Notes: generated by a model from the letters alone, not told the origin. Shown: positions 741 to 21,742, numbered from the stretch's first letter. The stretch: 64,000 bases of DNA from Candidatus Limnocylindrales bacterium (GCA_035248345.1 DATFHO010000082.1:2410-66409), one strand, 5' to 3'. Numbers and translations: made by a program.

Positions 741-1753
741 TGGCTGACTCGACGCCCGCCCCCGAGGAGCGACAAGGCATGGAAAAGCTCCTTGCCCTGG
801 AGATGGTCTACGTCACCGAGATGGCGGCGATCGCCAGCGCGCGCGTCATGGGCCGCGGCGACCGGATGGGCGCCGACAAGCTCGCGACCGAGGCCATGCG
901 CAAGGCGATGGACGAGATCGAGATGGAAGGCACGATCGTCATCGGCGAGGGCGAGCGTGACGAAGCCCCGATGCTGTACATCGGCGAGCAGGTGGGCCTG
1001 GCGGGTGACACGGCGCCGGCGATCGACATCGCGGTCGACCCGTTGGAGGGCACGAACCTCGTCGCCACCGGCTCCGCGAACGCGATCACGGTCCTGGCCG
1101 CCTCGGAGCGCGGCGGACTCGTGCACGCGCCCGACACGTACCTCGAGAAGTTGTGCGTCGGCCCGGGCGCCGCGGGCAAGGTCGACATCACGCTGCCCCC
1201 GGCCGAGAACGTCCGCCTGATCGCCGAGGCGCTGGGCCGGCGCATGCAGGACATCACGGTGATCATCCTCGACCGGCCGCGCCACGCCGACCTGATCGCC
1301 GAGGTTCGTTCCACCGGCGCGCGCATCAAGCTGATCACCGACGGCGACCTTTCCGCGGCGATCTCCTGCGCGGTCCAGGGCACGGGCGTGCACGCCGTCA
1401 TGGGCGTCGGCGGGGCGCCCGAAGGCGTGATCACGGCCGCGGCGCTGCGCTGCCTCGGTGGCGAGATCCAGGCGCGCTTCCGGTATCGCTCCGACGAGGA
1501 GCGGGCGCGCGGCGAGCGGATGGGCCACGGCGACGAGAGCAAGATCTACAGGACGGAGGACCTCGCCTCGGGCGAGCACCTCGTCTTCGCCGCGACGGGC
1601 GTCACCCCCGGCGACCTGCTCGAAGGCGTGCGCTTCTTCGGTGGCGGCGCCCGGACGCACTCGCTGGTGATGGCGTACCAGACGAAGACCGTCCGGTTCG
1701 TCGACACCGTCCACATGTTCGACCGGGAGCGCCCGCCGAGCGTGCGGGTCTAG
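740..1753 (+). CDS. glpX: Fructose-1,6-bisphosphatase class II (GlpX)
   Basis: 337 aa with GlpX-like blocks ([46 protein letters not shown]). Confidence 0.85.
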
Positions 1754-4053: not shown

Positions 4054-5115
4054 GTGCAGCCCGTCGCAGTCCGAATCCTGCACCCGACACCCGCATCGAC
4101 GACGGGGCCGTTCGAACGTGCGCTCATCGACGCACGCACTGCGAACGCGGATCGCGTGGCGGCGCTCTTCCGGGCGGCGGGCGCAACGGATGTCGAGATC
4201 GTCTCCGGGCCGCCCGACGGGCGCTCGTTCGGCGCTCGGTTGCGTGGGCTCGTCGCCGGTCTCCCCGTGGGCGGCGGGCTCGTCGTGCTGGGATCGGGGG
4301 CGATCCCGCTCGCGATGCGCGCCGATGCCGAGGCCCTGCTCGAGGCCGCGGGGAGCGGTCTGCGGTGCGCCGTCGCGAACAACGTCTATTCCGCTGACGT
4401 GGTGGCGATCGGGGCAGCGGCGAATCTCGCCTCCGTGCCGGACCTGCCGAGCGACAACGCCCTCCCGCGCTGGCTCCGCGAAGCGGCCGGCTACGAGGTC
4501 ACCGACCTGCCGCGCCCGCGCCTGCAGCTGGATCTCGATTCGCCGCTCGACGTCATCCTCGCTGACTCGGTCCGAGCCGGCACTCCCACGCTCGAGGGCG
4601 TCGACACGAGCGTCGTCCGGGATCGCTTCGAAGCGATCCGGGGCATCTCGCGGGATCCGCATCGGCAGCTCGTCGTGGCAGGCCGAATCTCCTCCGCCAC
4701 CCTGCGGTGGCTGGAAGCCGGAACGGCGTCGCGCACGCGGGCACTGATCGAGGAGCGCGGGCTCCGCGCGATCGGGCTCGCCACGGGCCAGGCACCGCCG
4801 CGATCCATCCTCGGCATGCTGCTGGACGATCGCGGCCCCGAAGCGGTGGGCGCGATCCTCGAGGAGCTGGGCGACGCTGCCGTCGTCGATTCCCGCGTCC
4901 TCCTGGCCCATCGTCTCGGCGCGGACGAAGCAGCGTGGCCGCCGCCGCATGACCGCTTCGCGTCGGACCTGCTGCTCCCGGATTCGATCGGCGACCCGTG
5001 GCTCCGCGCGCTCACCGCGGGTGCCCGCGCCGCCGCCATCCCGATCCTGCTCGGCGGCCACACGCTCGTCGGGCCGGGCCTCCGGCTCGCGGTCGGTGGG
5101 CGAGGCGGTCGATGA
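4054..5115 (+). CDS. Hypothetical protein (function unknown)
   Basis: GTG at 4054 in frame in track ORF 2953..5115. The upstream part of that ORF is antisense to folK. The stop overlaps the next start (ATGA). Confidence 0.4.
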   Translation: MQPVAVRILHPTPASTTGPFERALIDARTANADRVAALFRAAGATDVEIVSGPPDGRSFGARLRGLVAGLPVGGGLVVLGSGAIPLAMRADAEALLEAAGSGLRCAVANNVYSADVVAIGAAANLASVPDLPSDNALPRWLREAAGYEVTDLPRPRLQLDLDSPLDVILADSVRAGTPTLEGVDTSVVRDRFEAIRGISRDPHRQLVVAGRISSATLRWLEAGTASRTRALIEERGLRAIGLATGQAPPRSILGMLLDDRGPEAVGAILEELGDAAVVDSRVLLAHRLGADEAAWPPPHDRFASDLLLPDSIGDPWLRALTAGARAAAIPILLGGHTLVGPGLRLAVGGRGGR

Positions 5116-6356
5116 GCGACTTCCAGGTCGGCCTTCGGCGGGTCCAGGAGCTCGATCCATCGACGCCGCTGCCGGACAGCGACCCCGACCTCGTCGAGCG
5201 CATCCGCGCCGAGATCGTCCAGACGGGCCCGATGACCTTCGCCCGGTTCATGGAGCTCGCGCTCTACGACCCCGAGCGCGGCTACTACACCCGCGCCGAC
5301 ATCGACCAGGGACCGGGCCGCACCGGCGATTTCCTCACCGCGCCCGAAGGCCACCCGATCTTCGGCTGGTCGATCGCGCGATTCCTCGAGGCCGTGTGGG
5401 CCGCGCTGGACCGGCCGGCGCGTTTCGTGGTCCGCGAGCACGGCGCCGGCACCGGCGCGCTCGCCGCTGGGATCCTCGACGGCCTCCGGCGATCGGGATC
5501 GGCGCTGTTCGAGACGGTCGACTACCAGGCAGTCGATGCCGCGCCGACACGGCGCGCCGCGCTCGAGGCACGACTGCGCGACGCCGGCCTCGCCGACCAC
5601 CTCCGCGCCGCGGATGACGTGCCCGCGCCGGGCGCGTTCATTGCGAATGAGCTGCTGGACGCGCTGCCGGTTCACCGGGTCGAGGGCGGCGGCGACGGCC
5701 GCCTGCTCGAACGATTCGTCACGATCGGTTCAGGGGACGATGCGTTCGTCACCGTCCTGGCGGCGCCGTCCACGCCGGCCCTCGAAGCACGCCTCGCTGC
5801 AGAGGGCGTCGCGCTCGCGCCCGGGCAGCCCGCCGAGATCTGCCTCGCGATCGATGGCTGGATCCGCGACGCCATCGCGCCGCTCGAGCGCGGCGTTGCC
5901 CTGCTCATCGATTACGGGCACCCGGCCCACGAGCTCTACGCGGCACACCGGGGCAGCACGCTTCGCGCGTATCACCGCCATCGGGTCCATGCGGACCCGT
6001 TCGTCGCCATCGGCCGGCAGGACCTGACCGCCCACGTCGATCTCACCGCCGTCGAACGTGCGGCGACCGCTGCCGGCATGCGTCCCGCCGGCCGGACGAC
6101 CCAGGGCCCGTTCCTCGCCGACCTCGGCGCGGGCGAGCTGCTCGTCGGCATGCAGACCGCGTCGGACACGACGTTCGAGCGCTACGCCACTGCGCGCGCC
6201 GCGCTGATGCGGATGCTCGACCCGCGCGCGACGGGCGCCTTCGCCGTGCGCGCATTCGAGCGTGGAATGCCGAGAAATGCCCAGCTTCCGGGGTTCGCCG
6301 CGGGGCCATCCCGCGCACCTTCGGCGAGCGAGGCGACCGCGAGGCCGGATCGGTAG
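5112..6356 (+). CDS. SAM-dependent methyltransferase, MidA/NDUFAF7 (DUF185) family
   Basis: Motifs FMELALYDPERGYY, GDFLTAPE, REHGAGTGALA (SAM GxGxG) and ANELLDALPVH are characteristic of the MidA/NDUFAF7 family. Confidence 0.75.
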   Translation: MSDFQVGLRRVQELDPSTPLPDSDPDLVERIRAEIVQTGPMTFARFMELALYDPERGYYTRADIDQGPGRTGDFLTAPEGHPIFGWSIARFLEAVWAALDRPARFVVREHGAGTGALAAGILDGLRRSGSALFETVDYQAVDAAPTRRAALEARLRDAGLADHLRAADDVPAPGAFIANELLDALPVHRVEGGGDGRLLERFVTIGSGDDAFVTVLAAPSTPALEARLAAEGVALAPGQPAEICLAIDGWIRDAIAPLERGVALLIDYGHPAHELYAAHRGSTLRAYHRHRVHADPFVAIGRQDLTAHVDLTAVERAATAAGMRPAGRTTQGPFLADLGAGELLVGMQTASDTTFERYATARAALMRMLDPRATGAFAVRAFERGMPRNAQLPGFAAGPSRAPSASEATARPDR

Positions 6357-6398: not shown

Positions 6399-6842
6399 AT
6401 GCCACGAAGTCCGACAACGGATCGAGTGCCCGGCGTCCACCCCGGATGGCCGGCACGGAGCGAGGATGGCTTGACCGGGATCTGGTACATCATCGGGTTC
6501 GCCTTCGCCGCCGGATCGTTCACGTTCCTCACGTTCGGCGCGGCATGGCTGCTGTCCCACCGGAATCGCGGCGACGTCCACAAGGGCCTGCCGTACGAGT
6601 CCGGCATCGACACCTACGGTGACACCCACGGCCGCTTCGGGCTGTCGTTCTACATCTACGCCCTGCTGTTTGTCGCGTTCGACATCGAGGTCGTGTTCAT
6701 CTACCTGTGGGCCGTCGTGTTTCGAAACCTGCCGGAGCCGCAGGGGTTCACGACGATGCTCGTGTTCGTGGCGATCCTCCTCTTCGGGCTCGCGTACGCG
6801 TGGCGCAAGGGCGTGCTGAGCTGGCGAGGACCGGGCCGATGA
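6399..6842 (+). CDS. nuoA: NADH-quinone oxidoreductase subunit A
   Basis: Three TM segments with the YESGI and FDIEVVFIYLWA motifs. The start is uncertain (alternative in-frame TTG at 6471). Confidence 0.85.
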   Translation: MPRSPTTDRVPGVHPGWPARSEDGLTGIWYIIGFAFAAGSFTFLTFGAAWLLSHRNRGDVHKGLPYESGIDTYGDTHGRFGLSFYIYALLFVAFDIEVVFIYLWAVVFRNLPEPQGFTTMLVFVAILLFGLAYAWRKGVLSWRGPGR

Positions 6843-7582
6843 CCGACGAGACCCGCAACGACGCGACCAGCGCCCCGATGGGCTCCGACCAGACTGGCAA
6901 CGCGCCGGCTGCACTCGTCGTGCCCGGCGCCCGTGCCGTCTCGGAGCCGCTCGTGGTCCGCAACGACCTCTGGGCGCCCGCCGACCCGACCGCGTACGCC
7001 GCGAACGACCTCCAGGTCGACGTCACGCACCTGGCCGAATTCGGCGCGACGGATGCCGGGCGACATGACGATGCGCGCTGGTCCGGCCTGCTCGAGGTCA
7101 TCCCGACCAAGGCGGACTACGTCCTGGACCTGCTCCGCGCCAACAGCCTGTGGCCGCTGCTCAGCGGCCTCGCGTGCTGCGCGATCGAGATGATGTCCTT
7201 CGCGACATCGAAGAACGACATCGACCGGTGGGGCGCATTCCCGTTCCGCGCCTCCCCGCGCCAGGCCGACGTCCTCATCGTCGCCGGCACGCTCACGACG
7301 AAGATGGCCGGCCCGCTCCTGCGCCTGTGGGAGCAGATGCCGGAGCCGAAGTGGTGCGTCGCGATGGGCGACTGCACGTGCTCCGGCGGCCGCTACAAGC
7401 GCTCGTACTCCACGGTCGAAGGCATCGACCGGATCATGCCCGTCGACGTCTACGTGCCCGGCTGCCCGCCCCGCCCCGAGGGGCTGATCTTCGGGATGAT
7501 GAAGCTCCAGCAGCTGGTCAAGGACCGCCGCGGCCACTGGCCGGAGCGCGCGATCGGCCCCACGGTTCCGGCCGGGGTCTGA
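6839..7582 (+). CDS. nuoB: NADH-quinone oxidoreductase subunit B (with long N-terminal extension)
   Basis: N2-cluster cysteines are present (GLACCAIEMM, GDCTCSGG, VPGCPPRPE). ATGA overlap with nuoA. About 60 extra N-terminal residues if the 6839 start is used. Confidence 0.9.
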   Translation: MTDETRNDATSAPMGSDQTGNAPAALVVPGARAVSEPLVVRNDLWAPADPTAYAANDLQVDVTHLAEFGATDAGRHDDARWSGLLEVIPTKADYVLDLLRANSLWPLLSGLACCAIEMMSFATSKNDIDRWGAFPFRASPRQADVLIVAGTLTTKMAGPLLRLWEQMPEPKWCVAMGDCTCSGGRYKRSYSTVEGIDRIMPVDVYVPGCPPRPEGLIFGMMKLQQLVKDRRGHWPERAIGPTVPAGV

Positions 7583-7583
7583 G

Positions 7584-8129
7584 ATGGATCGAGCCCTGGC
7601 GCGCCGCCTCGAGGCGCGATTCGGCCCTGTGCTCCATGGCCCGGCGCGCCAGCGCCACGACCAGACGGAGATCCGCATCGGTGCGGGCGACGTGGTCGCC
7701 GTGCTCCGAGCGCTCCACGATGAATCGGACCTGGCGTTCGTCATGCTGAGCGACCTCGCCGGCGTCGACACCGGCTCGGAGATGCAGGTCGTCTATCACC
7801 TCTGGAGCGCCACCACGAGCGACTGGCTGCGCGTGATCGCCGAAGGCCTCTCCCGCGACGACCCGCGGGTCCCGTCCGCGACCTACCTCTGGCCGGGCGC
7901 GGAGTGGATGGAGCGCGAGACCTACGACATGTTCGGGATCGTGTTCGAGGGCAACCGCGACCTCCGCCGCATCTACATGCCGGCGGACTACACGAGCTTC
8001 CCGTTGCGCAAGGACTTCTACCTGCCCGACGACAGCGCCCGCTCCCCCGGCGCCGGCGTGCGCCACGTCGAACGGACCCACAGCCCGACCGACGCCGCCC
8101 CCGGCGTCCTTCGCCAGACGCGAGCGTAG
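7584..8129 (+). CDS. nuoC: NADH-quinone oxidoreductase subunit C
   Basis: Motifs WPGAEWMERETYDMFGIVFEGN and DLRRI..P..Y fit the 30 kDa subunit family. Confidence 0.9.
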   Translation: MDRALARRLEARFGPVLHGPARQRHDQTEIRIGAGDVVAVLRALHDESDLAFVMLSDLAGVDTGSEMQVVYHLWSATTSDWLRVIAEGLSRDDPRVPSATYLWPGAEWMERETYDMFGIVFEGNRDLRRIYMPADYTSFPLRKDFYLPDDSARSPGAGVRHVERTHSPTDAAPGVLRQTRA

Positions 8130-8138
8130 CCGAGCACC

Positions 8139-9383
8139 ATGACGATCAACACCGGGCAGCGCCCGACGCCGAAGGGCACGCATCGATCGGCCGACGACCC
8201 GAACGTCCTGCTCCAGGACGACTTCGCGGAGTACGAGCCGATCCCGCCGTACCCCCCGCGCACCGAGCGGGAGGCCGAGTTCTACACGCTCGGCGACGGC
8301 GAGATGTTCCTCAACATGGGCCCCCAGCACCCCTCGACCCACGGCGTGCTCCGGGTCGTCCTCAAGCTCGACGGCGAGACGGTCGTCGACATCGACCCGG
8401 TCCTCGGCTACCTCCACCGCGGCGTCGAGAAGCTGATCGAGAACGCGGACTACCACCAGACGATCAGCCAGATGGACCCGCTCGAGTACATCTCGTCGCT
8501 GTTCATGGAGTGGGCGCCGGTCACGGCGTACGAGCGACTGCTCGACGTCCAGGTCCCCCGTCGCGCCGAGTACATCCGCGTGCTGTCGGGCGAGCTCAAC
8601 CGCATCGCCAGCCACGCGCTCTTCCTCGGCTGGTTCGCCCTCGACCTGGGCGGCCTCACGCCGATCCTGTGGTCGTTCATCGAGCGCGACGAGATCGTCG
8701 AGATGCTCGCCGCGCTCACCGGCCAGCGGATGCTCTTCAACTACTTCCGCATCGGCGGCGTGAACGGTGACCTCAACCACGAGTTCATGAGCCGCCTCGG
8801 CGACTGGATGAGCCGCGCGGTCTCCCAGATCGAGGCCGGCATGGGCCTGCTCAACGAGAACGAGATCTTCACCCGCCGTGCCAGCGGCCTCGGCGTCATC
8901 GATCGCGAGACGGCGCTGCGCTACTGCATGACCGGCCCGAACCTCCGTGCGACGGGCATGGCCTACGACGTCCGCCGCGCCCACCCGTACTCGATCTATC
9001 CCGAGCTCGAGTTCGATGTCCCGACGCGCACCGAGGGCGACTCGCTCTCGCGCTACCTCCTGCGCATGGAGGAGATCAAGCAGAGCGTCCGGATCATCGA
9101 CCAGTGCCTCGAGAAGATGCCCGACGGCCCGATCATGGCCAAGCTCCCCCGCCTGCTCCGGCCGCGCCCGGGTCGCGCGTGGTCGGCGGTCGAGTCGCCG
9201 CGCGGCCTGTTCGGGACCTACGCGATCAGTGACGGGACGGACCAGCCGTTCCGCCTGAAGATCCACGATCCGAGCTTCATCCACCTCCAGGCGGTCGGGG
9301 CCCTCCTGCCCGGCAACCTGCTCGCCGACACCATGGCGATCATGGCGAGCCTCGATCCGGTCATGGGCGGGGTGGATAAATGA
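8139..9383 (+). CDS. nuoD: NADH-quinone oxidoreductase subunit D
   Basis: 414 aa with NMGPQHPSTHGVLRVV, GYLHRGVEKL and a C-terminal ...IMASLDPVMGGVDK, as in the 49 kDa subunit family. Confidence 0.92.
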   Translation: MTINTGQRPTPKGTHRSADDPNVLLQDDFAEYEPIPPYPPRTEREAEFYTLGDGEMFLNMGPQHPSTHGVLRVVLKLDGETVVDIDPVLGYLHRGVEKLIENADYHQTISQMDPLEYISSLFMEWAPVTAYERLLDVQVPRRAEYIRVLSGELNRIASHALFLGWFALDLGGLTPILWSFIERDEIVEMLAALTGQRMLFNYFRIGGVNGDLNHEFMSRLGDWMSRAVSQIEAGMGLLNENEIFTRRASGLGVIDRETALRYCMTGPNLRATGMAYDVRRAHPYSIYPELEFDVPTRTEGDSLSRYLLRMEEIKQSVRIIDQCLEKMPDGPIMAKLPRLLRPRPGRAWSAVESPRGLFGTYAISDGTDQPFRLKIHDPSFIHLQAVGALLPGNLLADTMAIMASLDPVMGGVDK

Positions 9384-9519
9384 TCTCTGGGGCCGTCACT
9401 TGGACGTCCGATCCGGGCGTTGCCGTCTGCGCGCGCTCGCTCACGCACCCTGAGGTGCGCTCGCGATCGTGCTCGTCGGCGCCTTCGGCTCGGCTCGCCC
9501 AAGCGCCGGGGAGCTGCTC

Positions 9520-10872
9520 ATGACGGTCATGGCGCGCACCTGGGATCGGCTCACGCTCCCGGGCAAAGCCCTCGCGATCCTGCTGCCGCTGGGGGCGGTG
9601 CTGACGATCGGGCTGATCCTCGTGATCGCCCTGTTCGGCCAGAACATCCTCGACATCCTGATCTTCAACCTGCCGATCGTCCGGTTCGTGTTCGCGGCGA
9701 CGATCCTGTTGCTGCTCGCCCCGCCGATCGCCTTCGTGATCATCTACATGGAGATGAAGATCATCGCCCTCATGAACCTCCGGATCGGGCCGGATCGGGT
9801 GGGGCCGTGGGGGTCGCTGCTGTCGACCGTGCACGGGCTCAAGGTCCTCATGAAGGAGGACTTCACCCCGACCAAGGCAGACGCGGTCGTCTTCACGTGG
9901 GCGCCGGTCATCGTGTTCGGCGCGGCGGCCATGAGCGCGCTGGTGCTGCCGTTCGCGCCGGGGCTGTACGGCCAGGACTTCAACATCGGGCTGCTGTACT
10001 TCTTCGCGATCGGCGGCATGACCGTCGTCGGGCTGCTCATGGGCGGCTGGTCGAGCTTCAACAAGTACTCGCTGCTCGGCGGCATCCGCTCGGCGGCCCA
10101 GATCGTGAGCTACGAGATCCCGCTGACGCTGTCCGTTGTCGGGCTCGTGATCCTGGCCGGGACGATGAGCCTCAACCAGATCGTGCAGCAGCAGGGCGCA
10201 AGCGGCTGGTTCACCGACTGGTACGCGTTCCGGCAGCCCCTCGGCCTGGTCATCTTCTTCATCGCCGCGACGGCGGAGGCGAATCGCACCCCGTTCGACC
10301 TGACCGAGGCGGACTCCGAGATCGTCGCCGGCTTCGCGACCGAGTACTCGGGCATGCGCTTCGGGTTCTTCTTCTTCGCCGAGTACATCGGCGTGTTCAT
10401 CATCTCGGCGCTCACCACCGTGCTCTTCCTCGGTGGCTGGAACGCGCCGTTCCCGGTGCCGCACATCAGCTGGATCATCGATCCGAGCTCGCTCGGGCTG
10501 TGGCTGCTGCTGGGGATCATGATCGTGCCGGTGATCGCGACGCTGCTCTTCGCCGCGCCGGTCTACCTGTTCCGGTCGAAGACCCGCTGGTGGGTCGCGC
10601 TGATCATCGGCTTCGTCGTCTTCAACCTGGTGGCGGGTGGCCTGTTCTTCCTCTGGGCGTACATCAACTTCGACTGGGTGGCGGGCCTGATCTGGTTCCT
10701 CGGCAAGGCGTTCGGGCTCGTGTTCCTGTTCGTGTGGATGCGCGGCACGCTGCCCCGCGTCCGCATCGACCAGCTCATGGGCTTCGCCTGGAAGTGGCTG
10801 CTCCCGGCGGCGCTGCTGAACCTGTTCATCACCGCGGCGGCCATCCTCGTCATCGATCGGATCCGACCGTGA
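9520..10872 (+). CDS. nuoH: NADH-quinone oxidoreductase subunit H
   Basis: Polytopic membrane protein with RIGPDRVGPWG, EANRTPFDLTEADSEIVAGF.TEYSGMRF and RGTLPRVRIDQLM. ATG 9520 is chosen within track ORF 9469..10872. Confidence 0.9.
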   Translation: MTVMARTWDRLTLPGKALAILLPLGAVLTIGLILVIALFGQNILDILIFNLPIVRFVFAATILLLLAPPIAFVIIYMEMKIIALMNLRIGPDRVGPWGSLLSTVHGLKVLMKEDFTPTKADAVVFTWAPVIVFGAAAMSALVLPFAPGLYGQDFNIGLLYFFAIGGMTVVGLLMGGWSSFNKYSLLGGIRSAAQIVSYEIPLTLSVVGLVILAGTMSLNQIVQQQGASGWFTDWYAFRQPLGLVIFFIAATAEANRTPFDLTEADSEIVAGFATEYSGMRFGFFFFAEYIGVFIISALTTVLFLGGWNAPFPVPHISWIIDPSSLGLWLLLGIMIVPVIATLLFAAPVYLFRSKTRWWVALIIGFVVFNLVAGGLFFLWAYINFDWVAGLIWFLGKAFGLVFLFVWMRGTLPRVRIDQLMGFAWKWLLPAALLNLFITAAAILVIDRIRP

Positions 10873-11558
10873 GCATGCTGCCCAGCCTCGTCCCCGGCCT
10901 CGGCATCGTGAAGGGCATGGCGCTCACGCTGCGCCGGTTCTTCCAGCCGAAGGCGACCGTGCTCTATCCCGAGATGCCGGCGGACGTCGCGACGCGCTTC
11001 CGCGGCCGCCTCCAGCTGCTGTACGACGAGTACGGCAGCCTCAAGTGCGAGACCTGCTTCCAGTGCGCCCAGGCCTGCCCGATCGAGTGCATCGACATGG
11101 GCGGCATGGACACGAAAGGCCGGTTCCACGTGCACTGGGGCCCGCCGGAGACGTACGGCGAGCGACGCGAGGAATCGGCGATCCGCCGCTCCGGCCGGAC
11201 CGTGCCGGATCCCGCCTACGAGCACTACCGGCCGTTCGACACGACGACGATCGACGAGATCCTCGACAAGTACGACCACGACCCGAAGCTGATGCTGCCG
11301 ATCCTCGAGGACACGCAGGCGGCGTTCGGCTTCCTGCCGGTCGCAGCGATCAAGCGCATCTCGGAGCGGACCGGCGCCTGGTACGCGATCATCTACGGCA
11401 CCGCGACGTACTACTCGCACCTGCGGTTCGAGCCGCCGATGCCGGCCGAGGCGAAGGGCACGTCGGCGCCCGTCCTCGCGCGTCGCCCGAACGAATCGTC
11501 GTACGTGGACGCGCTCGGGGCGGCGCTCGGCGGCAAGCAGGCGGGGGGTGTGCATTGA
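10869..11558 (+). CDS. nuoI: NuoI-like subunit with a single Cys motif, fused to a cysteine-free NuoE-like N-terminal domain
   Basis: The N-terminus is NuoI-like (ATVLYPE..RFRG, CETCFQCAQACPIEC). The second CxxCxxCxxxCP motif is absent. The C-terminal ~110 aa (IDEILDKYDHDPKLMLPILEDTQAAFGFLP..AIKRISERTG..YGTATYYSHLRFEP) resemble the helical N-terminal part of NuoE and contain no Cys. GTGA overlap with nuoH. Confidence 0.7.
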   Translation: MSMLPSLVPGLGIVKGMALTLRRFFQPKATVLYPEMPADVATRFRGRLQLLYDEYGSLKCETCFQCAQACPIECIDMGGMDTKGRFHVHWGPPETYGERREESAIRRSGRTVPDPAYEHYRPFDTTTIDEILDKYDHDPKLMLPILEDTQAAFGFLPVAAIKRISERTGAWYAIIYGTATYYSHLRFEPPMPAEAKGTSAPVLARRPNESSYVDALGAALGGKQAGGVH

Positions 11559-12919
11559 CCGCGATCCTCCCGACGCCGAAGGAATGGCCGTCCGTGCTGC
11601 TGGCGCGCGCCGGCGCCGGCGACCCCACGGACCTCGACGCAGCGCAGAAGGCCGGTGCGTTCGACGGGCTTCGCCGTGCAGTTCGCGAGCTGGGGCCAGA
11701 CGGCACGATCGAGGAGATCCGGGCGAGCGGCCTGAAGGGCCGCGGCGGCGCGGGCCATCTCACGGCAGACAAGTGGCGCGCCGCGGCCGACACGGAGGCG
11801 CGCGACAGGTACGTCGTCGCGAACGGCTACGGGGCCGATCCTGCCGCGAGCACGGATCGCACGCTCCTCGAGACGGATCCGTATGCGGTCATCGAAGGCC
11901 TGACCATTGCCGCCTTCGCGGTCGGGGCGGAGACGGGCTACATCTCCGTCCGCGCCACCGCGACCGAGGCGATCAGCCGGATGACCGCCGCGCTCGACCT
12001 GGCGTACCAGCACAACCTCGTCGGCGAGGACGTGCTCGGCACCGGGCGGCGCATCGACATCGAGATCCGGTCTGTGCAGGGCGCGTACATGCTCGGCGAG
12101 GAGACGGTCCTCCTGAAGGCCCTCGACGGCAAGCGCGGCCAGCCGGAGCAGCGCCCGCCCCACCCGGCGACGCGCGGCTTCCGCAACGCGCCGACCGTCG
12201 TCCAGAACGTGCAGACCCTCGCTTCCGTGCCCTGGATCCTGCGCAACAAGGCACGCGCCTTCAAGGCGATCGGGCTCGGTGACGCGCCCGGCACGATCCT
12301 CGTCGACGTCCGCGGGCACGAGAAGGCGGGCATCGCGGAGGTGCCTCTCGGCACGCCACTCGGCCGCATCCTGGAGCTGGGCGGCAAGGCCGGCGCCGGT
12401 CGCAAGCTCAAGGCCATCGTCGTCGGCGGCCCGACGGGCGGGATCCTGCCCCCGAGCGCCATCGACACCCCGTACACGTTCGAGGACCTGCGCGGCGTCG
12501 GCGCCCATGTCGGCTCCGGCGCGGTGATCGCGGTCGACGACCGGGCGTGCATCGTGGACCTCGCCCGCCTGCTGACCCGCTTCTCCGCCGATGAGGCGTG
12601 CGGCAAGACCATCCCGTGCCGGATCGGGCTGCGACGCGTCGCGGAGATCGGCGAGCGGCTCACGACCGGCACCTCGCGGGCCGGTGACGTGACGCTCCTC
12701 GAGGACCTCTCCGCGGACATCGTCGCGTCCGCCCTGTGCGATCACGAGCGACTCGCAACACTGCCGATGATGAGCAGCCTCCGCCACTTCCGGCCCGAGC
12801 TCGATGCGCACCTCCTGCGCGGCGAGTGCCCGGCCGGCGTGTGCCGGCCGATCCACCTCGGGACCGCCACCACCGCGACCACCGCCACCACCGCGACCAC
12901 TGCTGGAGCGACCGCATGA
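11555..12919 (+). CDS. nuoF: NuoF-like flavoprotein subunit (divergent)
   Basis: Motifs GLKGRGGAGHLTADKW (FMN loop-like), GAYMLGEETVLLKALDG, NVQTLASVP and DEACGKTIPCRIG (N3 region with its middle Cys missing). TTG start overlaps the upstream stop (TTGA). The C-terminal tail is a (TATTAT)x2 repeat. Confidence 0.7.
   Translation: MTAILPTPKEWPSVLLARAGAGDPTDLDAAQKAGAFDGLRRAVRELGPDGTIEEIRASGLKGRGGAGHLTADKWRAAADTEARDRYVVANGYGADPAASTDRTLLETDPYAVIEGLTIAAFAVGAETGYISVRATATEAISRMTAALDLAYQHNLVGEDVLGTGRRIDIEIRSVQGAYMLGEETVLLKALDGKRGQPEQRPPHPATRGFRNAPTVVQNVQTLASVPWILRNKARAFKAIGLGDAPGTILVDVRGHEKAGIAEVPLGTPLGRILELGGKAGAGRKLKAIVVGGPTGGILPPSAIDTPYTFEDLRGVGAHVGSGAVIAVDDRACIVDLARLLTRFSADEACGKTIPCRIGLRRVAEIGERLTTGTSRAGDVTLLEDLSADIVASALCDHERLATLPMMSSLRHFRPELDAHLLRGECPAGVCRPIHLGTATTATTATTATTAGATA
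12863..12898 (+). repeat. Perfect 18-bp tandem duplication (ACCGCCACCACCGCGACC x2) encoding the Thr/Ala tail of the NuoF-like protein
   Basis: Read directly from the sequence: 12863-12880 is identical to 12881-12898. Confidence 0.9.
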
Positions 12920-15645
12920 CCGACCTGATCGAGCGGCCGCCCAGCGAGGTCACGCGCCGCGACGGCGCGCACGACGGCGATGCGCCCGACGAGCCGAAGC
13001 TCGGCGGCGACCGCTACACGCGCTACGACGGCAAGCCCGAGAGCCGCCCGGACAAGCCCATCGTCCGCGACACGGACACGCCGCTCGAGGACACGCGTGC
13101 CGAACAGCTCATTACGACGCAGAGCCCGCAGCGGCCCCTGAACACGCCGCGCATCCGGATCGAGGTCGACGGGCGCACCGTCGAGGGCCTCGAGGGCCAG
13201 ACGATCCTCGAGGTCTGCCGCGACAACGGCATCGAGATCCCGACCCTGTGCTACGAGCCGAAGCTCCCGGGCTTCGGTGCGTGCCGCATGTGCGTCGTCG
13301 AGGTCGAGGGCGAGGAGCATCCGCCGATCTCGTGCTCGCGCACGTGCGAGGACGGGATGAAGGTCCAGACCCAGACGGAGGAGATCCGCCGGGTCCGGCG
13401 CACGAACCTCGAGCTGATCTTCAGCGACCACAACGCGTATTGCCTGCCGCCCTGCCAGAACAAGTGCCCGAGCCACATCGACATCCCGGGCTTCCTGAAG
13501 CAGAACGCGGAGGGAAACTTCCGCGAGTCGACGCGGATCTTCAAGCGGACGATCCCGTTCCCCTCGGTGCTCGGTCGCGTGTGCCCCGCCCCATGCGAGG
13601 AGCACTGCCGCCGCGACGAGGTCGACGAGGCGATCGCGATCCGCGACTCCCACCGGTACGCCGGCGACATGGTCATCAAGTCGATGCTCGACGAGGACCT
13701 GGACCCGCCGGTCCCGTTCGAGCAGCAGCCGAAGACCGGCCGCCGCGCGGCGGTGATCGGCTCCGGCCCCGCCGGCATGGCGGCGGCGTACTACCTGCTG
13801 CTGTCGGGCCACGACGTCACAGTCTTCGAGCGCGACCCGGCGCCGGGCGGCATGCTCCGGTACGGCATCCCGCAGTACCGCCTGCCGAAGGTCGAGGTCC
13901 TCGAGGCCGAGTACGAGTCGGTCACGCGCCTCGGCGGCAAGATCGTGTGCAACCAGGGCCTCGGGCGCGACTTCACGCTCGACGACCTGCAATACCAGGG
14001 CTTCGACGCGGTCGTCGTGGCGATCGGCTGCTACGACACGAACAAGCTCGGCATCCCGGGCGAGGACGCGCCCGAGGTCCTTGACGGCCTCGAGTACCTG
14101 CGCACCGCCACGCTTGGGCTCCCGTATCCGGAGCACAAGGGCAAGCGCGTCGTCGTCATCGGCGGCGGCTTCACCTCGATGGACTGCTCGCGGACCTCGG
14201 TCCGCCAGGGGGCCAGCGAGGTCACCCTCGTCTACCGCCGCGACATGAAGGACATGCCGGCCGCGAACGAGGTCCACGAAGCCATCGAGGAAGGTGTCAC
14301 GGCGATCTTCCAGGCCGGCCCGACCCGCGTGGTCGTCGACAAGGACAACAAGGTCACCGGCGTCGAGTTCATCCGGATGGCGCTCGGCGCGCCCGATGCC
14401 TCCGGCCGCCGCCGCCCCGAGCCCGCGCCCGGCACCGAGTTCATCATCCCGTGCGATCGCGTCCTGCTCGCCATCGGCCAGGGGCCGGAGCTCGACTGGA
14501 TCGGCCCCGGCTCGACCGGCCCCGTCGCGACGAAGAACAAGCGCCTCGGCGCGGACGCGGTCACGTTCGAGACGGCTCGGCCCGGCGTCTTCGGCACGGG
14601 TGACGTGCGCATTGGCGCCGCGACGGTCGTCCAGGCGATCGCCGAGGGCCGGCGCGCCGCGTACGCGGTCGACGCCTTCCTGCGTGGCAACGACCTGTCA
14701 TCGATCCGCACTCGCCAGACCCTGGCGGAGCCGCAGCCCGAGTTCCTGTCGATCGTGCCGTTCACCGGCGAGGTCAAGGAGCCGCGCTACCGCCTGAAGG
14801 CCCTCGAGGCCGAGGAGCGCAACCACAACTACATCGAGTACGAGATCCCGTACTCGCGCGAGGAGATCGTGGCCGAGTCCACGCGCTGCCTCCAGTGCAC
14901 GTGCGAGGCGATCGGCTACTGCGACCTGCGCCGCCTCGGCATCGAGTACGGCACGACGCTGACCACGCTCGAGCCGGACCCGCACCAGGGCGCCGGTCTC
15001 CGATCCGTCAACGAGAACCGGTTCACGGGCATCAACCACGATTACATCCGGGACGACTCGCACGCGTTCATCCTTCGCGAGCCCTCGCGCTGCATCGACT
15101 GCGGCCGCTGCGCCAACGTGTGCGCCGAGGTCGTCGGTGCTGCGTGCTACGACTTCATGCGGATCGGCTTCGACACGCTCGTGACGACGCCGCTCGACAT
15201 GAGCCTCAACGACACGCCGTGCGTGTCCTGCGGCCGCTGCGCCGAGACGTGCCCGACCGGCGCGCTCATGCCGAAGCCGCGCGTCCTCCAGAAGTACGAG
15301 GTCGACGAGAGCCGCTGCATCCTGTGCGGCATCTGCGTGGACGCATGCCCGTACGACGCCCTCCGCGACGGCCAGGAGTTCGAGCTCTCGCACACCAGCC
15401 GCGAGGACCCGATGATCGACCTGATGGCGATGGCCCAGGTGGATCGCGAGACCGAGGTCACGTACATCCGCAAGGAGCGCGACTGGCTCCAGCGCGCGAT
15501 GGAGGCCGGCCGCTACGTCCCGTCCGACCGCCTGCTCACGGTGCTCCCTGCCAGCCTCTCGCGACCGGCCGGCCCGAGCGCGCACGAGCACGGCGGCGGT
15601 TCCCAGGGTGAGTCGCACGGCGGCTCCCACGCGCACCTGAAGTAG
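12916..15645 (+). CDS. Fusion protein: NuoG-type N-terminal [2Fe-2S] domain, GltD-type FAD/NAD(P)H oxidoreductase, then NuoG-like and ferredoxin-type [4Fe-4S] motifs
   Basis: N1b-like Cys pattern (C-x10-C-x2-C-x13-C in [30 protein letters not shown]). GltD-like blocks ([54 protein letters not shown]). Then [11 protein letters not shown]...[16 protein letters not shown] and [12 protein letters not shown]. The tail is His-rich. No molybdopterin-like C-terminal domain is recognisable. Confidence 0.7.
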
Positions 15646-15653
15646 CCGACCGA

Positions 15654-16265
15654 ATGCGAGCCTGGCTCTACCTTCTCGCGGCGGCCGTCGCCGGCGCGAT
15701 CATCACCACGCCCGCGATCATCGTCCTGATCCTCATGGGCGGGTCGTTCAACGACGCCCTGCTGGCGGGCCTGGCGACGCTGATGCTCGCCTCGGGAATC
15801 GCGGTCGTGACGATGCGCGACATCATCCGGTGCGGCCTCGCGATGATCGTGTGCTTCCTGTCGCTCGCCGGCATCTACGTGCAGCTCGGCGCGCCGATGG
15901 TCGCGGCGGCGCAGGTGATCGTGTACATCGGCGCCATCAGCGTCCTGATCCTGTTCGCGATCATGCTCACCCAGGACAAGGCGGCCCCGGCGCGGCTCGT
16001 GTTCCAGACGCAGGCCACGCCGGCCGCGATCGCCTCGATCATCGTGGCGGTGCTCGTCGCGATCGCCGCGTACGGCACGAACTGGGGCGCCGTCACGACC
16101 CAGATCGAGGCGGCGACGAACACGATCGCCTACTTCATCTTCGGCAACACGTCCGACACGCCGCAGTCGCAGCAGTACGTCCTCGTGTTCGAGGCCGTGA
16201 GCGTGCTCCTCCTCGCCGCCGTCATCGGCGGCGTGTTCCTCGCGAAGAAGGAGCGCACCGACTGA
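15654..16265 (+). CDS. nuoJ: NADH-quinone oxidoreductase subunit J
   Basis: 203-aa polytopic protein in the nuoJ position, with [22 protein letters not shown]. Confidence 0.85.
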
Positions 16266-16582
16266 TGGGCGTCTCCGAGCAGCTCAACACGTACCTGACC
16301 CTGTCCGGGCTGCTGTTCGCGATCGGCTCGTTCGGGTTCCTGGCCCGCCGGAACGCGATCTCGATGCTCATGTCCATCGAGCTGATGCTGAACGCCGTGA
16401 ACCTCGCCATCGTCGCGTTCGGCGCGTTCATCCCGTCGCTGCAGGGGGACGGCGCGGTGATCGCGCTGATGGTCATCGCCGTTGCCGCGGCCGAGGCCAC
16501 GGTCGGCCTTGCGATCGTCATCGCGATCTTCCGCAACCGCAAGACGCCCCTCGTCGACGAGTACGACGCGATGCGCAGATGA
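16265..16582 (+). CDS. nuoK: NADH-quinone oxidoreductase subunit K
   Basis: 105 aa with three TM segments and the [15 protein letters not shown] and [12 protein letters not shown] motifs. Confidence 0.9.
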
Positions 16583-16592
16583 GCGCCGCCCG

Positions 16593-18590
<1,998 letters not shown>

Positions 18591-18593
18591 ACG

Positions 18594-20243
18594 ATGGAAG
18601 CCTGGATCCTGACGCTCGTCACGTTCCTGCCGCTCGTCGGCGCGATCGTGATCGGATTCTCCCCGGTCCGCTGGGCGCGCATCCTCGCGCTCGCGACGGC
18701 GCTGATCACGTGGGCGGTCTCCTTGGTGATGGCCGGCATGTTCAACAGCGGCACGCCCGGGTTCCAGCTGGTCGTCGAGACCTCGTGGATCCCCGCCTTC
18801 GGGATCGAGTACAAGCTCGGCGCCGACGGGCTGTCCGTCGCGCTCGTGGTCCTGACCACGACGCTGACGTGGATCAGCATCCTCGCGAGCTTCGCCCCCA
18901 TCCAGACCCGGATCAAGGAATACATGATCTCGTTCCTGATCCTCGAGGTCGGCATGACGGGTGTGTTCCTCGCCCTCGACACGTTCCTCTTCTACATCTT
19001 CTGGGAAGTCGTGCTCGTGCCGATGTACCTGATCATCGGCATCTGGGGCGGCAAGAACCGCATCTACGCGACGATCAAGTTTGTGCTCTACACGCTGGTC
19101 GGCTCGCTGCTCATGCTCGTGGCGATCCTGGCGACGGCGTTCGCGTACCAGGGCGCGCACCCAGACACCGGCTGGGTGGGCGCGTTCGACTTCGAGGCGC
19201 TCAAGGCCTACGCGGGCACCACCGGCTTCGCCGACGGCCTGCAGCTCCTCGGCTTCGCGGCCTTCTTCCTCGCCTTCGCGATCAAGGTGCCGATGTTCCC
19301 GTTCCACACGTGGCTCCCCGATGCGCACGTCGAGGCACCGACCGCCGGCTCGGTCATCCTGGCCGCGGTGATGCTCAAGCTCGGCGCGTACGGGCTCATC
19401 CGGTTCAACCTGACGTTCTATCCGGACGCGGCGCATACCTACGCGCCGCTGATCATCGTCCTGAGCCTGATCGCGATCATCTACGGCGCGATCGTGGCGA
19501 TGGTCCAGCCGGACCTGAAGAAGCTGATCGCGTACTCGTCCGTCAGCCACATGGGCTTCGTCACGCTCGGGATCTTCGTGTTCCAGGAGCAGGCGATGAA
19601 CGGCGCGATCCTCCAGATGATCAACCACGGCCTGATCACCGGCGGGCTGTTCCTGCTCGTCGGCGTGATCTACGAGCGCACCCACGATCGGACGATCGCG
19701 AAGATGGGCGGCCTCGCCGGCCTGACGCCGGTGTGGGCGGTGACGTTCGGGTTCTTCGTCTTCGCCTCGGCCGGCCTGCCGGCGCTGTCCGGGTTCGTGG
19801 GCGAGTTCCTGACGATGCTCGGAACGTTCGTGGCGAACCCTTGGGCCGCGGCCGTTGCCGCCATCGTGATGGTGCTCGGCGCCGTGTACCTGCTGTGGAT
19901 GTACCAGCGCGTCACCCTGGGTGAGCCGTCGGCGTTCCTGCTCGGCCTGAAGGACCACCTGAGCGACATGACCGCCACGGAGGTGCTCACGCTCGCCCCG
20001 CTCGGCGCCCTGGTCGTGATCTTCGGCCTGTTCCCGGGCGTGCTCCTCACGGTGATCGGACTGCCTGCGAAGGACGCGCTCGAGGCCGTCGCAGGTGGCG
20101 CTCCGATCGCCCTGGACCCGATCGTCCCCGCCCTGTTCTTCGGCGCCGTGGTCGCGATCGTCGTGATCCGGCTGTTCGCGCTGCGCCCCGGCCGTGCGTC
20201 GGGTGAGGACACGGCCGCCCAGCCCGCGGAGGGCGCAGCCTGA
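18594..20243 (+). CDS. nuoM: NADH-quinone oxidoreductase subunit M
   Basis: 549-aa antiporter-like subunit (FAIKVPMFPFHTWLPDAHVEAPTAGSVILA). Confidence 0.9.
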   Translation: MEAWILTLVTFLPLVGAIVIGFSPVRWARILALATALITWAVSLVMAGMFNSGTPGFQLVVETSWIPAFGIEYKLGADGLSVALVVLTTTLTWISILASFAPIQTRIKEYMISFLILEVGMTGVFLALDTFLFYIFWEVVLVPMYLIIGIWGGKNRIYATIKFVLYTLVGSLLMLVAILATAFAYQGAHPDTGWVGAFDFEALKAYAGTTGFADGLQLLGFAAFFLAFAIKVPMFPFHTWLPDAHVEAPTAGSVILAAVMLKLGAYGLIRFNLTFYPDAAHTYAPLIIVLSLIAIIYGAIVAMVQPDLKKLIAYSSVSHMGFVTLGIFVFQEQAMNGAILQMINHGLITGGLFLLVGVIYERTHDRTIAKMGGLAGLTPVWAVTFGFFVFASAGLPALSGFVGEFLTMLGTFVANPWAAAVAAIVMVLGAVYLLWMYQRVTLGEPSAFLLGLKDHLSDMTATEVLTLAPLGALVVIFGLFPGVLLTVIGLPAKDALEAVAGGAPIALDPIVPALFFGAVVAIVVIRLFALRPGRASGEDTAAQPAEGAA

Positions 20244-21742
20244 TGCCGCAGGACATCCTGGTGCTCGGGCCGTTCATCGCCGCGGTCGTCGTCGCGCTGG
20301 CGGTGCTGGTCGTCGACCTTGTGGTGCCCGGCCGGCGCAACCCGGTCATCCTCGTCTCGCTCGTCGGCCTCGCCATCGTGGCGGCCCTCACGATCACGAC
20401 CGGCAGCGCTGTTGCGGGTGGCGATGGGACCGCGCGCGTCACCGCGTTCGGGGGCGCCTACGTCGTCGACGGGCTCACGACGTTCCTGGACCTCATCTTC
20501 ATCGGCATCGTCGCGTTCACGATCGTGTTCGCGCCGGACTACCTCGAGGCGCGCGGCCTGCCCATGGCCGAGTTCTCGATGGTCCTCCTGTTCGCCATGA
20601 CCGGCGCGATGCTCATCGCGGCCTCGGCGGACCTGCTCGTGCTCTTCGTGGCGCTCGAGCTCATGGTGCTGCCGGGCTACATGCTCGCTGGCTACCACAA
20701 GACCGACGGCTACTCGACGGAAGGCGCGATCAAGTACTTCCTCCTCGGCTCGTTCAGCTCGGCGATCTTCCTGTTCGGCCTCGCGTTCACGTGGGGCGCC
20801 ACGGGCACGACGTCGATCGCCGGCGTGAGCGCGGCCCTGCAGGCGATCGCGACCGGCGGTGCCGCCGTCTCGCCCGCGCTCGTGCTCGGCCTCGGATTCC
20901 TGACCACGGGCGTGGCGTTCAAGATCGCCGCGGTCCCGTTCCACTACTGGACGCCGGATGCGTACCAGGGCTCACCGACGCCGGTGACGGGCTACCTGAG
21001 CGTCGGCCCGAAGGTCGGTGCCTTCGCGCTGATCCTGCGCCTGTTCGTGGACGCGCTCGGCCCGCTGCGCGCCGACTGGCTGCAGGTCGTGATCATCCTC
21101 GCCGTCCTCACGATGACCCTCGGCAACCTCGTCGCGCTGACGCAGAACAACGTGAAGCGCATGCTGGCCTACTCATCGATCGCGCACACCGGGTACATGC
21201 TCGTCGGGCTCGCGGCGTTCGCCGCCGGCCAGATCCAGGGGCTGGAAGGCCTGCTCTACTACGGCGCGGCGTACGCGGTGATGAACCTCGGCGCGTTCGC
21301 GGTCGTTGCCGCGATCCAGCGGCGCTCCGGCGTCACGTCCGCGCTCGACACGTTCGCCGGGCTCGCGCGTCGCGAGCCGTGGCTCGCGATCCTCATGACC
21401 CTCTTCCTGCTGTCGTTGACGGGCATCCCGCCCACGGCCGGGTTCTTCGGCAAGGCGTACGTCATCCTCGCCGCCGTGCAGGCCAGCGAGGCCGGCTCGA
21501 CCGCCCTGGGCGTGCTGGCCGTCGTGACCGTGCTGAATGCGGCCGCAGCGGCCTTCTACTACCTCCGGGTCGTCGTGTACATGTTCATGCGCGAGCCGCG
21601 TGCGGACGAGCCGGCGATGGGCCACGGCGCCCTGATGTGGGGCGGCCTCGCGGTCGCCAGCGTCCTCACCGTCGCGCTCGGCCTCATCCCGGGGCCGTTC
21701 CTCGACATCGTCGGCCAGGCCGCCCGCGCGATCGGGGGGTAG
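20243..21742 (+). CDS. nuoN: NADH-quinone oxidoreductase subunit N
   Basis: 499-aa antiporter-like subunit (FKIAAVPFHYWTPDAYQGSPTPVT). Its start overlaps the nuoM stop. Confidence 0.9.
   Translation: MPQDILVLGPFIAAVVVALAVLVVDLVVPGRRNPVILVSLVGLAIVAALTITTGSAVAGGDGTARVTAFGGAYVVDGLTTFLDLIFIGIVAFTIVFAPDYLEARGLPMAEFSMVLLFAMTGAMLIAASADLLVLFVALELMVLPGYMLAGYHKTDGYSTEGAIKYFLLGSFSSAIFLFGLAFTWGATGTTSIAGVSAALQAIATGGAAVSPALVLGLGFLTTGVAFKIAAVPFHYWTPDAYQGSPTPVTGYLSVGPKVGAFALILRLFVDALGPLRADWLQVVIILAVLTMTLGNLVALTQNNVKRMLAYSSIAHTGYMLVGLAAFAAGQIQGLEGLLYYGAAYAVMNLGAFAVVAAIQRRSGVTSALDTFAGLARREPWLAILMTLFLLSLTGIPPTAGFFGKAYVILAAVQASEAGSTALGVLAVVTVLNAAAAAFYYLRVVVYMFMREPRADEPAMGHGALMWGGLAVASVLTVALGLIPGPFLDIVGQAARAIGG

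Follow-up and report, generated by a model that had tools for sequence, protein, structure and literature searches.

How can a complex I operon get by with a NuoI subunit that carries only one of its two ferredoxin-type cysteine motifs? The question was raised by a 64,000-nt stretch of DNA from a Candidatus Limnocylindrales bacterium (GCA_035248345.1, DATFHO010000082.1:2410-66409; this whole stretch is hereafter the window), in which the gene following nuoH encodes a NuoI-like N-terminus fused to a cysteine-free NuoE-type domain, a protein referred to here as I(N)::E'. Two CxxCxxCxxxCP motifs on a single polypeptide were not found in this protein, which holds one. The original prediction, made by a model from the window alone, took the second motif to be replaced and the N6a/N6b relay to be missing or re-engineered. 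The second motif was located on the C-terminal tail of a NuoG-like protein, G', encoded further down the same operon, and at the level of sequence comparison I(N)::E' and this tail were shown to be complementary halves of a naturally split NuoI. That the two halves, one on I(N)::E' and one on G', are reassembled in trans we regard as likely.

The I(N)::E' gene and its parts are as follows, pLDDT denoting the predicted local distance difference test score of AlphaFold2.
10869..11558, + strand: I(N)::E' fusion gene, starting at GTG 10869 (overlapping the nuoH stop) or at ATG 10875; homology searches.
10875..11165, + strand: NuoI N-half, residues 1-97; TIGR01971 positions 1-65, 52.1 bits, and NuoI chains of the PDB.
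11046..11090, + strand: NuoI motif 1, C58-x2-C61-x2-C64-x3-C68-P69...C72, with the sole cysteines of the protein; motif scan.
11166..11234, + strand: conserved linker, residues 98-120, REESAIRRSGRTVPDP...; high conservation in 81 orthologues, low pLDDT.
11235..11444, + strand: E' domain, residues 121-190, a cysteine-free four-helix domain of the NuoE/NfnC/StnA/HydC type; PF01257, PDB, AlphaFold2 and Foldseek.
11445..11555, + strand: C-terminal tail, residues 191-227, poorly conserved, standing where the thioredoxin-like [2Fe-2S] domain has been lost.

Counted from GTG 10869, I(N)::E' has 229 residues; the residue numbers used here start from ATG 10875 and run to 227. Translation of 10869-11558 gave just five cysteines, all within CETCFQCAQACPIEC (nt 11046-11090), in agreement with the original prediction. 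The N-half contains a surface helix (residues 9-22), a conserved YPE...RFRGR segment, Cys motif 1 and the inter-motif loop. Residues 10-96 aligned with the first half of NuoI from M. smegmatis (8e9g_I 6-90, E 4.8e-11), and also with E. coli NuoI 15-88 (7awt_I) and T. thermophilus Nqo9 7-68 (2fug_9); the NuoI-specific YPE...R(F/Y)RG segment was present before the first CxxCxxCxxxCP motif. The stretch RFHVHWGPPETYGER, which had been read as a replacement of the second motif, turned out to be the ordinary inter-motif loop (compare ...DERYSPGERYGR in M. smegmatis). The whole protein scored 49.4 bits on the NuoI model TIGR01971, under its curated cut-off of 113.05. An AlphaFold2 model of I(N)::E' built on 54 sequences gave pLDDT values of 72-89 for the N-terminal helix and 41-52 for the half-ferredoxin part. 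Such low values beside confident neighbours are what would be expected in a model of a fragment that needs a partner.

The other half of NuoI was found on G', of which the following features are needed here.
12916..15645, + strand: G' gene, 909 residues; domain and PDB matches.
15067..15270, + strand: HydA/Nqo3-type 2x[4Fe-4S] domain of G' with motifs b (C726...C736) and c (C769...C779-P); PF22117 (Fer4_Nqo3).
15283..15555, + strand: NuoI C-half, G' residues 790-880; TIGR01971 positions 74-117 and TYKY chains.
15316..15351, + strand: NuoI motif 2 (motif d of G'), C801-x2-C804-x2-C807-x3-C811-P812; motif scan, 100% conserved in 56 orthologues.

Motif 2 sits about 3.7 kb downstream of I(N), in the last ~120 residues of G' and directly before nuoJ. 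In the NCBIfam search, G' residues 789-835 corresponded to positions 71-117 of the 121-position NuoI model, and TYKY 152-211 and 161-220 matched the G' tail with E values of 3e-13 to 1e-11. The likeness of the tail to NuoI/TYKY exceeds the generic motif (...ETEV versus NFEFSTETREELLYDK...ETEI). A six-frame scan of the 64 kb detected only four CxxCxxCxxxC motifs and no hidden second NuoI in the window. G' accounts for three of the motifs and I(N)::E' for the remaining one, so that each chain carries one motif that has no partner on the same chain.

Residues 1-97 of I(N)::E' were then joined in silico to residues 790-909 of G'. The joined sequence matched positions 1-117 of the 121 of TIGR01971 in a single stretch with 101.8 bits, compared with 52.1 bits for the N-half and 46.3 bits for the G' tail taken separately. 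Against the PDB it aligned in one stretch with M. smegmatis NuoI 6-130 (E 1.6e-20; the halves alone reached 4.8e-11 for N and 5.7e-9 for C), and it was also collinear with Arabidopsis TYKY 23-158, T. thermophilus Nqo9 7-128 and E. coli NuoI 15-131. When joined halves from 23 loci and from the distant locus L081 were aligned with E. coli NuoI (alignment A1), all eight Cys and both Pro were invariant. The break point fell at about P89/E90 of E. coli NuoI, which places the split of NuoI in the loop that joins its two pseudo-symmetric halves. The claim that the N6a/N6b relay is missing through a lost motif was not supported by this result: the second motif is conserved on the G' tail and rejoins with the first to a full-length NuoI match. 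A block-diagonal alignment of I(N)::E' proteins with G' fragments was also tried and dropped, because MAFFT matched E' with the tail and motif c with motif 1.

The architecture is widespread. The database contained 2901 homologues of I(N)::E', the best 120 of which were 73-88% identical and 216-256 residues long; where the source names of the best homologues gave an organism, it was Limnocylindria/Limnocylindrales or Dormibacteraeota. At least 515 GTDB species genomes encode I(N)::E', most of them Limnocylindria (Chloroflexota). Exactly five Cys were present in 80 of the 81 aligned orthologues, and the linker was also strongly conserved. The order nuoD-nuoH-I(N)::E'-F'-G'(tail)-nuoJ, with F' a NuoF-like protein, was seen in every one of the 55 or more sufficiently long loci among the best 80. 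Some of the database relatives were visibly frameshifted fragments, and querying with the C-terminus of G' brought up nothing but fragments or short open reading frame (ORF) calls of 157-366 residues, many of them probably truncated, which say little on architecture.

A distant search covered 1.84 billion cluster representatives and gave full-length relatives with 23-50% identity to I(N)::E' (identities from alignment A2). It is clear from these relatives that C58, C61, C64, C68 and P69 are invariant even at 23-29% identity. In the distant loci L081, L086 and L088 (23-29% identical) motif 2 was present as well, and the one-motif I(N) was always paired with a G-like protein bearing one extra NuoI-type motif. 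Locus L081 encodes nuoH, an I(N)::E protein, an E::F::GltD fusion and a 265-residue NuoG-N protein ending in CIYCGLCVESCPHDALETGSDYELA, followed by nuoJ-N. The fusion (2076-5222 of L081) is a 1048-residue NuoF-like protein with a thioredoxin-like [2Fe-2S] domain at its N-terminus and a GltD-like domain at its C-terminus, and the NuoG-like protein consists of only 265 residues plus the NuoI tail, the parts being redistributed over the polypeptides. L086, from a metagenome-assembled genome of Chloroflexi, has A-B-C-D-H-I(N)::E'-F-G' at 6481-14281, with the tail CIFCGDCVEVCPHGAL and no nuoJ-N nearby; unrelated genes follow its module, among them a flavin reductase and a pyruvate:ferredoxin oxidoreductase. 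In L088 the module is just nuoB-I(N)::E'-F-G' (9392-14515).

What, then, became of NuoE? Residues 128-190 of I(N)::E' matched positions 1-63 of the 145 of PF01257 (38.8 bits against a cut-off of 24.8, E 1e-9), and the domain matched NfnC, StnA, HydC and NuoE chains in the PDB, including 9bov_C and 8oh5_A. Its four helices were modelled with pLDDT 83-97. In Foldseek the model superposed on the N-terminal domain of NfnC with a template modelling (TM) score of 0.88 and a root-mean-square deviation of 1.1 A (9bov_C), and with a TM score of 0.91 for 9n5v_C, HydC, StnA, FdsG and NuoE being the runners-up. The NuoI-derived N-terminus and the cysteine-free NuoE-type helical domain, both claimed in the original prediction, were thus borne out by PDB, TIGR01971 and PF01257 matches.

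No thioredoxin-like [2Fe-2S] domain with Cx4C...Cx3C was found in I(N)::E': there is no Cys past residue 72, and positions 64-145 of PF01257 are unmatched. N1a is truly absent and cannot be bound in this protein, again as had been proposed. The intact NuoE thioredoxin domain with Cx4C...Cx3C was present in relatives P0257, P0253, P0261 and P0266, and a degenerate one in P0126 and P0157; P0238 and P0255 are without it, like the window protein. The loss is accordingly recent within this clade, because relatives elsewhere keep an intact or degenerate version. The earlier suggestion that the NuoE remnant serves as a docking scaffold for the F-like subunit stands as plausible for the docking of F', given the modelled likeness to the NfnC/HydC/StnA anchor; in NfnABC this anchor sits as a wedge between NfnA and NfnB (PMC11829005).

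The gene following I(N)::E' encodes the NuoF-like partner.
11555..12919, + strand: F' gene, 454 residues, NuoF/StnB/NfnB-like flavoprotein core; PF01512 and PF10589; the TTG start overlaps the I(N)::E' stop.
12599..12619, + strand: N3/B1-type motif C349-G-K-T352-I-P-C355 of F', in which Thr replaces the middle Cys of C-x-x-C-x-x-C.

F' matched StnB, HydB and NfnB with E values of 1e-107 to 1e-99 (StnB 8oh5_B residues 105-528, E 1.4e-107), and complex I NuoF/51-kDa chains with 1.8e-80 to about 2e-58. No Fe-S motif was found outside the F' core, residues 14-435 of which cover only 105-528 of the 584 residues of StnB; the N-terminal [2Fe-2S] domain and the C-terminal ferredoxin domains of StnB are lacking. 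Thr352 was kept in at least 98% of 67 orthologues, the sole further conserved Cys downstream being C395 (nt 12737-12739), and the nucleotide-site motif NADE(G/S)EPG has become NGYGADP. This may mean a three-Cys or [3Fe-4S] form of the N3/B1 cluster, or else a vestigial NADH site. The end of F' (12866-12916) is a poorly conserved Thr/Ala repeat, TATTATTATTATTAGATA.

In G', a NuoG-type [2Fe-2S] domain is followed by a GltD/NfnL-like flavin adenine dinucleotide (FAD)/NAD(P)H domain with two [4Fe-4S], a C-x2-C-x-C-x5-C cluster, the HydA/Nqo3-type dicluster domain, the NuoI C-half and a His/Gly-rich end. Residues 80-811 matched residues 4-699 of the 1178 of C. saccharolyticus NfnA (E 8.7e-162), and the match to StnC 3-701 had an E value of 2.1e-140. 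Motifs b and c are 43 residues apart, all Cys of the dicluster domain are 100% conserved, and T. maritima HydA 116-228 matched it with E 3.7e-21. The His/Gly-rich end (15556-15642) is poorly conserved, orthologues having GNGHGHG-type tails, and metal binding by it is conceivable. The E', F' and G' parts all match Stn/Nfn/Hyd proteins better than complex I subunits, which on sequence grounds identifies the cassette as coming from the Bfu family. The GltD-like FAD/NAD(P)H domain of G' looks complete, and its FAD site, as the best-preserved entry point, is the best candidate for electron entry. A complete flavobicluster site of B1, flavin mononucleotide and C1, as defined in PMC11829005, was not found, C1 being gone and B1 having three Cys. 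Continued bifurcation of the Stn/Nfn style was rejected on these two points and on the missing ferredoxin-reducing domain; with the bifurcation site incomplete, the enzyme is expected to be a simple NAD(P)H:quinone oxidoreductase that does not bifurcate.

How the split subunit might work follows from the ferredoxin fold. In 2x[4Fe-4S] ferredoxin folds such as Nqo9 and bacterial ferredoxins, the four Cys ligands of each cluster are divided three to one between the two motifs. One motif by itself is not enough for a cluster, and each chain here has an unpartnered motif; docking in trans is therefore the simplest reading. I(N) and the G' tail would dock into the usual 2x[4Fe-4S] ferredoxin fold, with the four Cys of N6a, and likewise those of N6b, shared three to one between the two polypeptides. 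Once rebuilt, this domain would pass electrons from the dicluster domain of G' through N6a/N6b to N2 in NuoB and on to quinone. Formation of the NuoI fold may double as a clamp that fixes the input module to the Q-module, because each half of NuoI is covalently tied to a different input-module subunit. The NuoI tail takes the place of the Fdh-like C-terminal domain of NfnA, as seen from the extent of the G'-NfnA match. It is plausible that the two tether points converge and that the geometry allows trans docking, since the tail hangs at the place of that domain.

Several points weigh against reassembly in trans. Both the reassembly and the occupancy of the two clusters we infer from homology. 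The joined sequence still lies under the NuoI cut-off (101.8 versus 113.05 bits), and the AlphaFold2 model of the joined halves, computed without an alignment, was uninformative, with a pLDDT of 40 and a predicted TM score of 0.27. The L086 and L088 modules are not followed by nuoJ-N; they may work in another context, or membrane genes for them may be located elsewhere. Four-Cys sites in Bfu enzymes sometimes bind Zn and not Fe-S (PMC11829005). Finally, on the exact pairing, E. coli NuoI (residues 60-129) aligns in many loci to motifs c and d of G' as a two-motif unit (E about 1e-8).

This last alignment, together with that of bovine TYKY 77-148 to G' 769-833, favours an arrangement in which c and d form a NuoI-like ferredoxin domain by themselves and the I(N) motif pairs with b or with none. 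We hold this to be unlikely, as the NuoI model scores G' alone at 52.2 bits but I(N) plus d at 101.8, b and c align as a unit to the dicluster domain of HydA/NfnA/StnC/Nqo3 and to PF22117, the flanks of both I(N) and d are NuoI-specific, and I(N) would still require a partner motif from G'. The picture given by the original prediction, that the subunit binds one cluster at most, that the N6a/N6b relay is missing and that electrons take a re-engineered path to N2, such as one leading straight from the G' dicluster domain, is in keeping with the single motif of the I(N)::E' polypeptide and with a half-domain that AlphaFold2 left unfolded. It too has only a small chance of being right: in a ferredoxin fold a lone CxxCxxCxxxCP completes no cluster, yet the motif is invariant down to 23-29% identity, and an exactly complementary, equally conserved NuoI half is at hand on G'.

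The Cys motifs of both fragments might also be structural remnants, empty or Zn-binding, that serve docking and have no redox role. Zn was found at predicted Fe-S sites of C. saccharolyticus NfnB (PMC11829005), and other parts of the module are degenerate, N1a being lost and N3 having three Cys; however, both halves retain the full CxxCxxCxxxCP, its Pro included, across deep lineages, all N2 ligands are kept in NuoB, and without N6a/N6b there is no evident path from G' to N2, which makes this reading improbable. As to a sequencing, assembly or frameshift error that truncated a normal nuoI or masks a separate nuoE, nothing speaks for it save the oddity itself and the frameshifted state of some database relatives. 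The same gene structure recurs in the at least 515 species genomes, which come from many studies and platforms, conserved coding sequence fills the 3.7 kb between the NuoI halves, and no further motif occurs in any frame of the window. The chance of such an artefact, which the original prediction had named as a way in which it could fail, is close to nil, and an assembly error or a hidden nuoI or nuoE was rejected on cross-genome conservation. Trans reassembly of the split NuoI remains the reading that we prefer.

A complete nuo operon lies on the + strand at 6.4-21.7 kb, every subunit being assigned via Pfam/NCBIfam, in the order nuoA-B-C-D-H-I(N)::E'-F'-G'::I(C)-J-K-L-M-N. The genes outside the cassette are the following, those of the J-N set having been assigned by PF00499, PF00420, PF00662 and PF00361.
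6399-6842, + strand: nuoA; Pfam/NCBIfam.
6707-7582, + strand: ORF of nuoB, probable start ATG 6839 overlapping the nuoA stop; Pfam/NCBIfam.
7584-8129, + strand: nuoC; Pfam/NCBIfam.
8139-9383, + strand: nuoD; Pfam/NCBIfam.
9469-10872, + strand: nuoH; Pfam/NCBIfam.
15654-16265, + strand: nuoJ; Pfam.
About 16265-16582, + strand: nuoK; Pfam.
Within 16482-18590, + strand: nuoL; Pfam.
18594-20243, + strand: nuoM; Pfam.
20243-21742, + strand: nuoN; Pfam.

Adjacent genes of the operon overlap or almost touch, with GTGA, ATTGA and ATGA junctions. No canonical NuoE-F-G was found between nuoD and nuoH, nuoH being directly the next nuo gene after nuoD. The E'-F'-G' genes are placed between the two NuoI halves and the position of the NuoI gene is kept, I(N) coming directly after nuoH and I(C) ending 8 nt before nuoJ. 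The N2 ligands of NuoB are intact (CC157/158, C223 and C253). The N-terminal regions of two subunits are unusually long, namely those of NuoB (ORF of 291 residues, conserved domain from about residue 131) and NuoH (467 residues, Pfam domain from residue 79). Directly upstream of nuoA, the gene at 4998-6356 (+ strand) matched PF02636 (Methyltransf_28, E 1.3e-55), which we take to be the MidA/NDUFAF7 family; in eukaryotes, members of this family act in complex I assembly by methylating the NuoD homologue. The flanks carry ordinary genes, with a GlpX-type fructose-1,6-bisphosphatase at 740-1753 (+ strand), an MFS transporter at 22552-24141 (- strand) and an ABC-2 exporter pair of ATPase and permease at 24258-26410 (+ strand). 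The G+C content is 70% across the 64-kb window, and an Rfam scan gave no family at threshold anywhere in it.

As to the history of the locus, an E-F-G cassette of the Bfu family (Stn/NfnABC-like) would have been inserted inside nuoI of an operon of the 11-subunit type, although a stepwise history instead of a single insertion may also apply. The wider proposal is that in these Chloroflexota, which are abundant in freshwater and soil, a soluble Bfu-type (Stn/Nfn-like) NAD(P)H module joined an 11-subunit complex I in an event separate from the acquisition of canonical NuoEFG, by a three-gene insertion into nuoI; that this created a heterodimeric half-ferredoxin pair with [4Fe-4S] ligation across the interface, whose folding acts as a clamp; and that NADPH, through the GltD-like FAD site, and possibly NADH feed a proton-pumping quinone reductase. 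We give this proposal as a whole about an even chance.

If true, it would provide a natural 2x[4Fe-4S] ferredoxin domain made from two polypeptides with clusters ligated across their interface. A dimer of half-ferredoxins has been proposed as the ancestor of the 2x[4Fe-4S] ferredoxin fold, and the pair described here would be a living analogue of it and a template for split-ferredoxin engineering. For the evolution of complex I, a second, independent attachment of a NAD(P)H-oxidising module to the 11-subunit core would be indicated, the donor being the electron-bifurcating Bfu family and the bifurcation machinery having since been dismantled. Redox-balance models of Limnocylindria and their relatives, which are common in lakes, groundwater and soils, would also change if a GltD-type NADPH site feeds a proton-pumping complex I. 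In NCBI records I(N)::E' is named 'NAD(P)H-dependent oxidoreductase subunit E' and G' '4Fe-4S binding protein'; automated surveys would therefore score such genomes as lacking NuoI, NuoE or NuoG and misjudge the presence of complex I. Spero et al. (2015) stated that many Chloroflexi seem to lack NuoG and said no more on the subject. The literature searched, including complex I surveys and the Stn/Nfn structure papers, describes fused NuoCD and NuoBCD and 11-subunit enzymes; neither a split NuoI nor an operon of this type turned up in it, which is not proof of novelty.

Among known systems, the two halves compare most directly with NuoI/Nqo9/TYKY (NDUFS8). The N-segment, both Cys motifs, the loop and the TYKY-type C-segment are all present and collinear, and both halves are located between nuoH and nuoJ; here, however, the cut in the loop leaves two polypeptides, with a different input-module subunit fused to each half, and neither half attains the curated family score. 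With NuoE/Nqo2 and NfnC/StnA/HydC the E' part shares the four-helix anchor domain and the location of its gene directly upstream of a NuoF-like gene, but it lacks the thioredoxin-like domain and the [2Fe-2S] cluster N1a/C1 and is fused to half of NuoI.

The cassette as a whole resembles StnABC and NfnABC (8OH5, 9BOV, 9N5U; PMC10482914, PMC11829005) in its three-gene order, in the likeness of F' to StnB and in the [2Fe-2S], GltD/NfnL-like FAD-NADPH and Fe-S domains of G', all covered by its match to NfnA. 8OH5 is the StnABC transhydrogenase, whose StnC combines a GltD-like NADPH/FAD domain with a NuoG-like domain (PMC10482914), and 9BOV is NfnABC (PMC11829005). Unlike in these enzymes, the A subunit here has the NuoI C-half in place of its Fdh-like C-terminal domain, the B subunit is without its N-terminal [2Fe-2S] and C-terminal ferredoxin domains, with B1 three-Cys and C1 absent, and the cassette sits in a membrane nuo operon; quinone, and not ferredoxin or NAD, is therefore the likely partner.

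Nuo11, cyanobacterial NDH-1 and Fpo with FpoF share the A-B-C-D-H-I-J-K-L-M-N backbone, with no nuoEFG between nuoD and nuoH (PMC3144371), and likewise take their electrons from a non-canonical module. In those systems the partner is separate and non-covalent, whereas here the module is encoded inside nuoI and is covalent to both of its halves. The NuoCD and NuoBCD fusions (PMC12361115) are a further case of subunit boundaries rearranged within a conserved operon; there whole subunits are joined end-to-end, whereas the present locus combines the fission of a cofactor-binding domain with two fusions.

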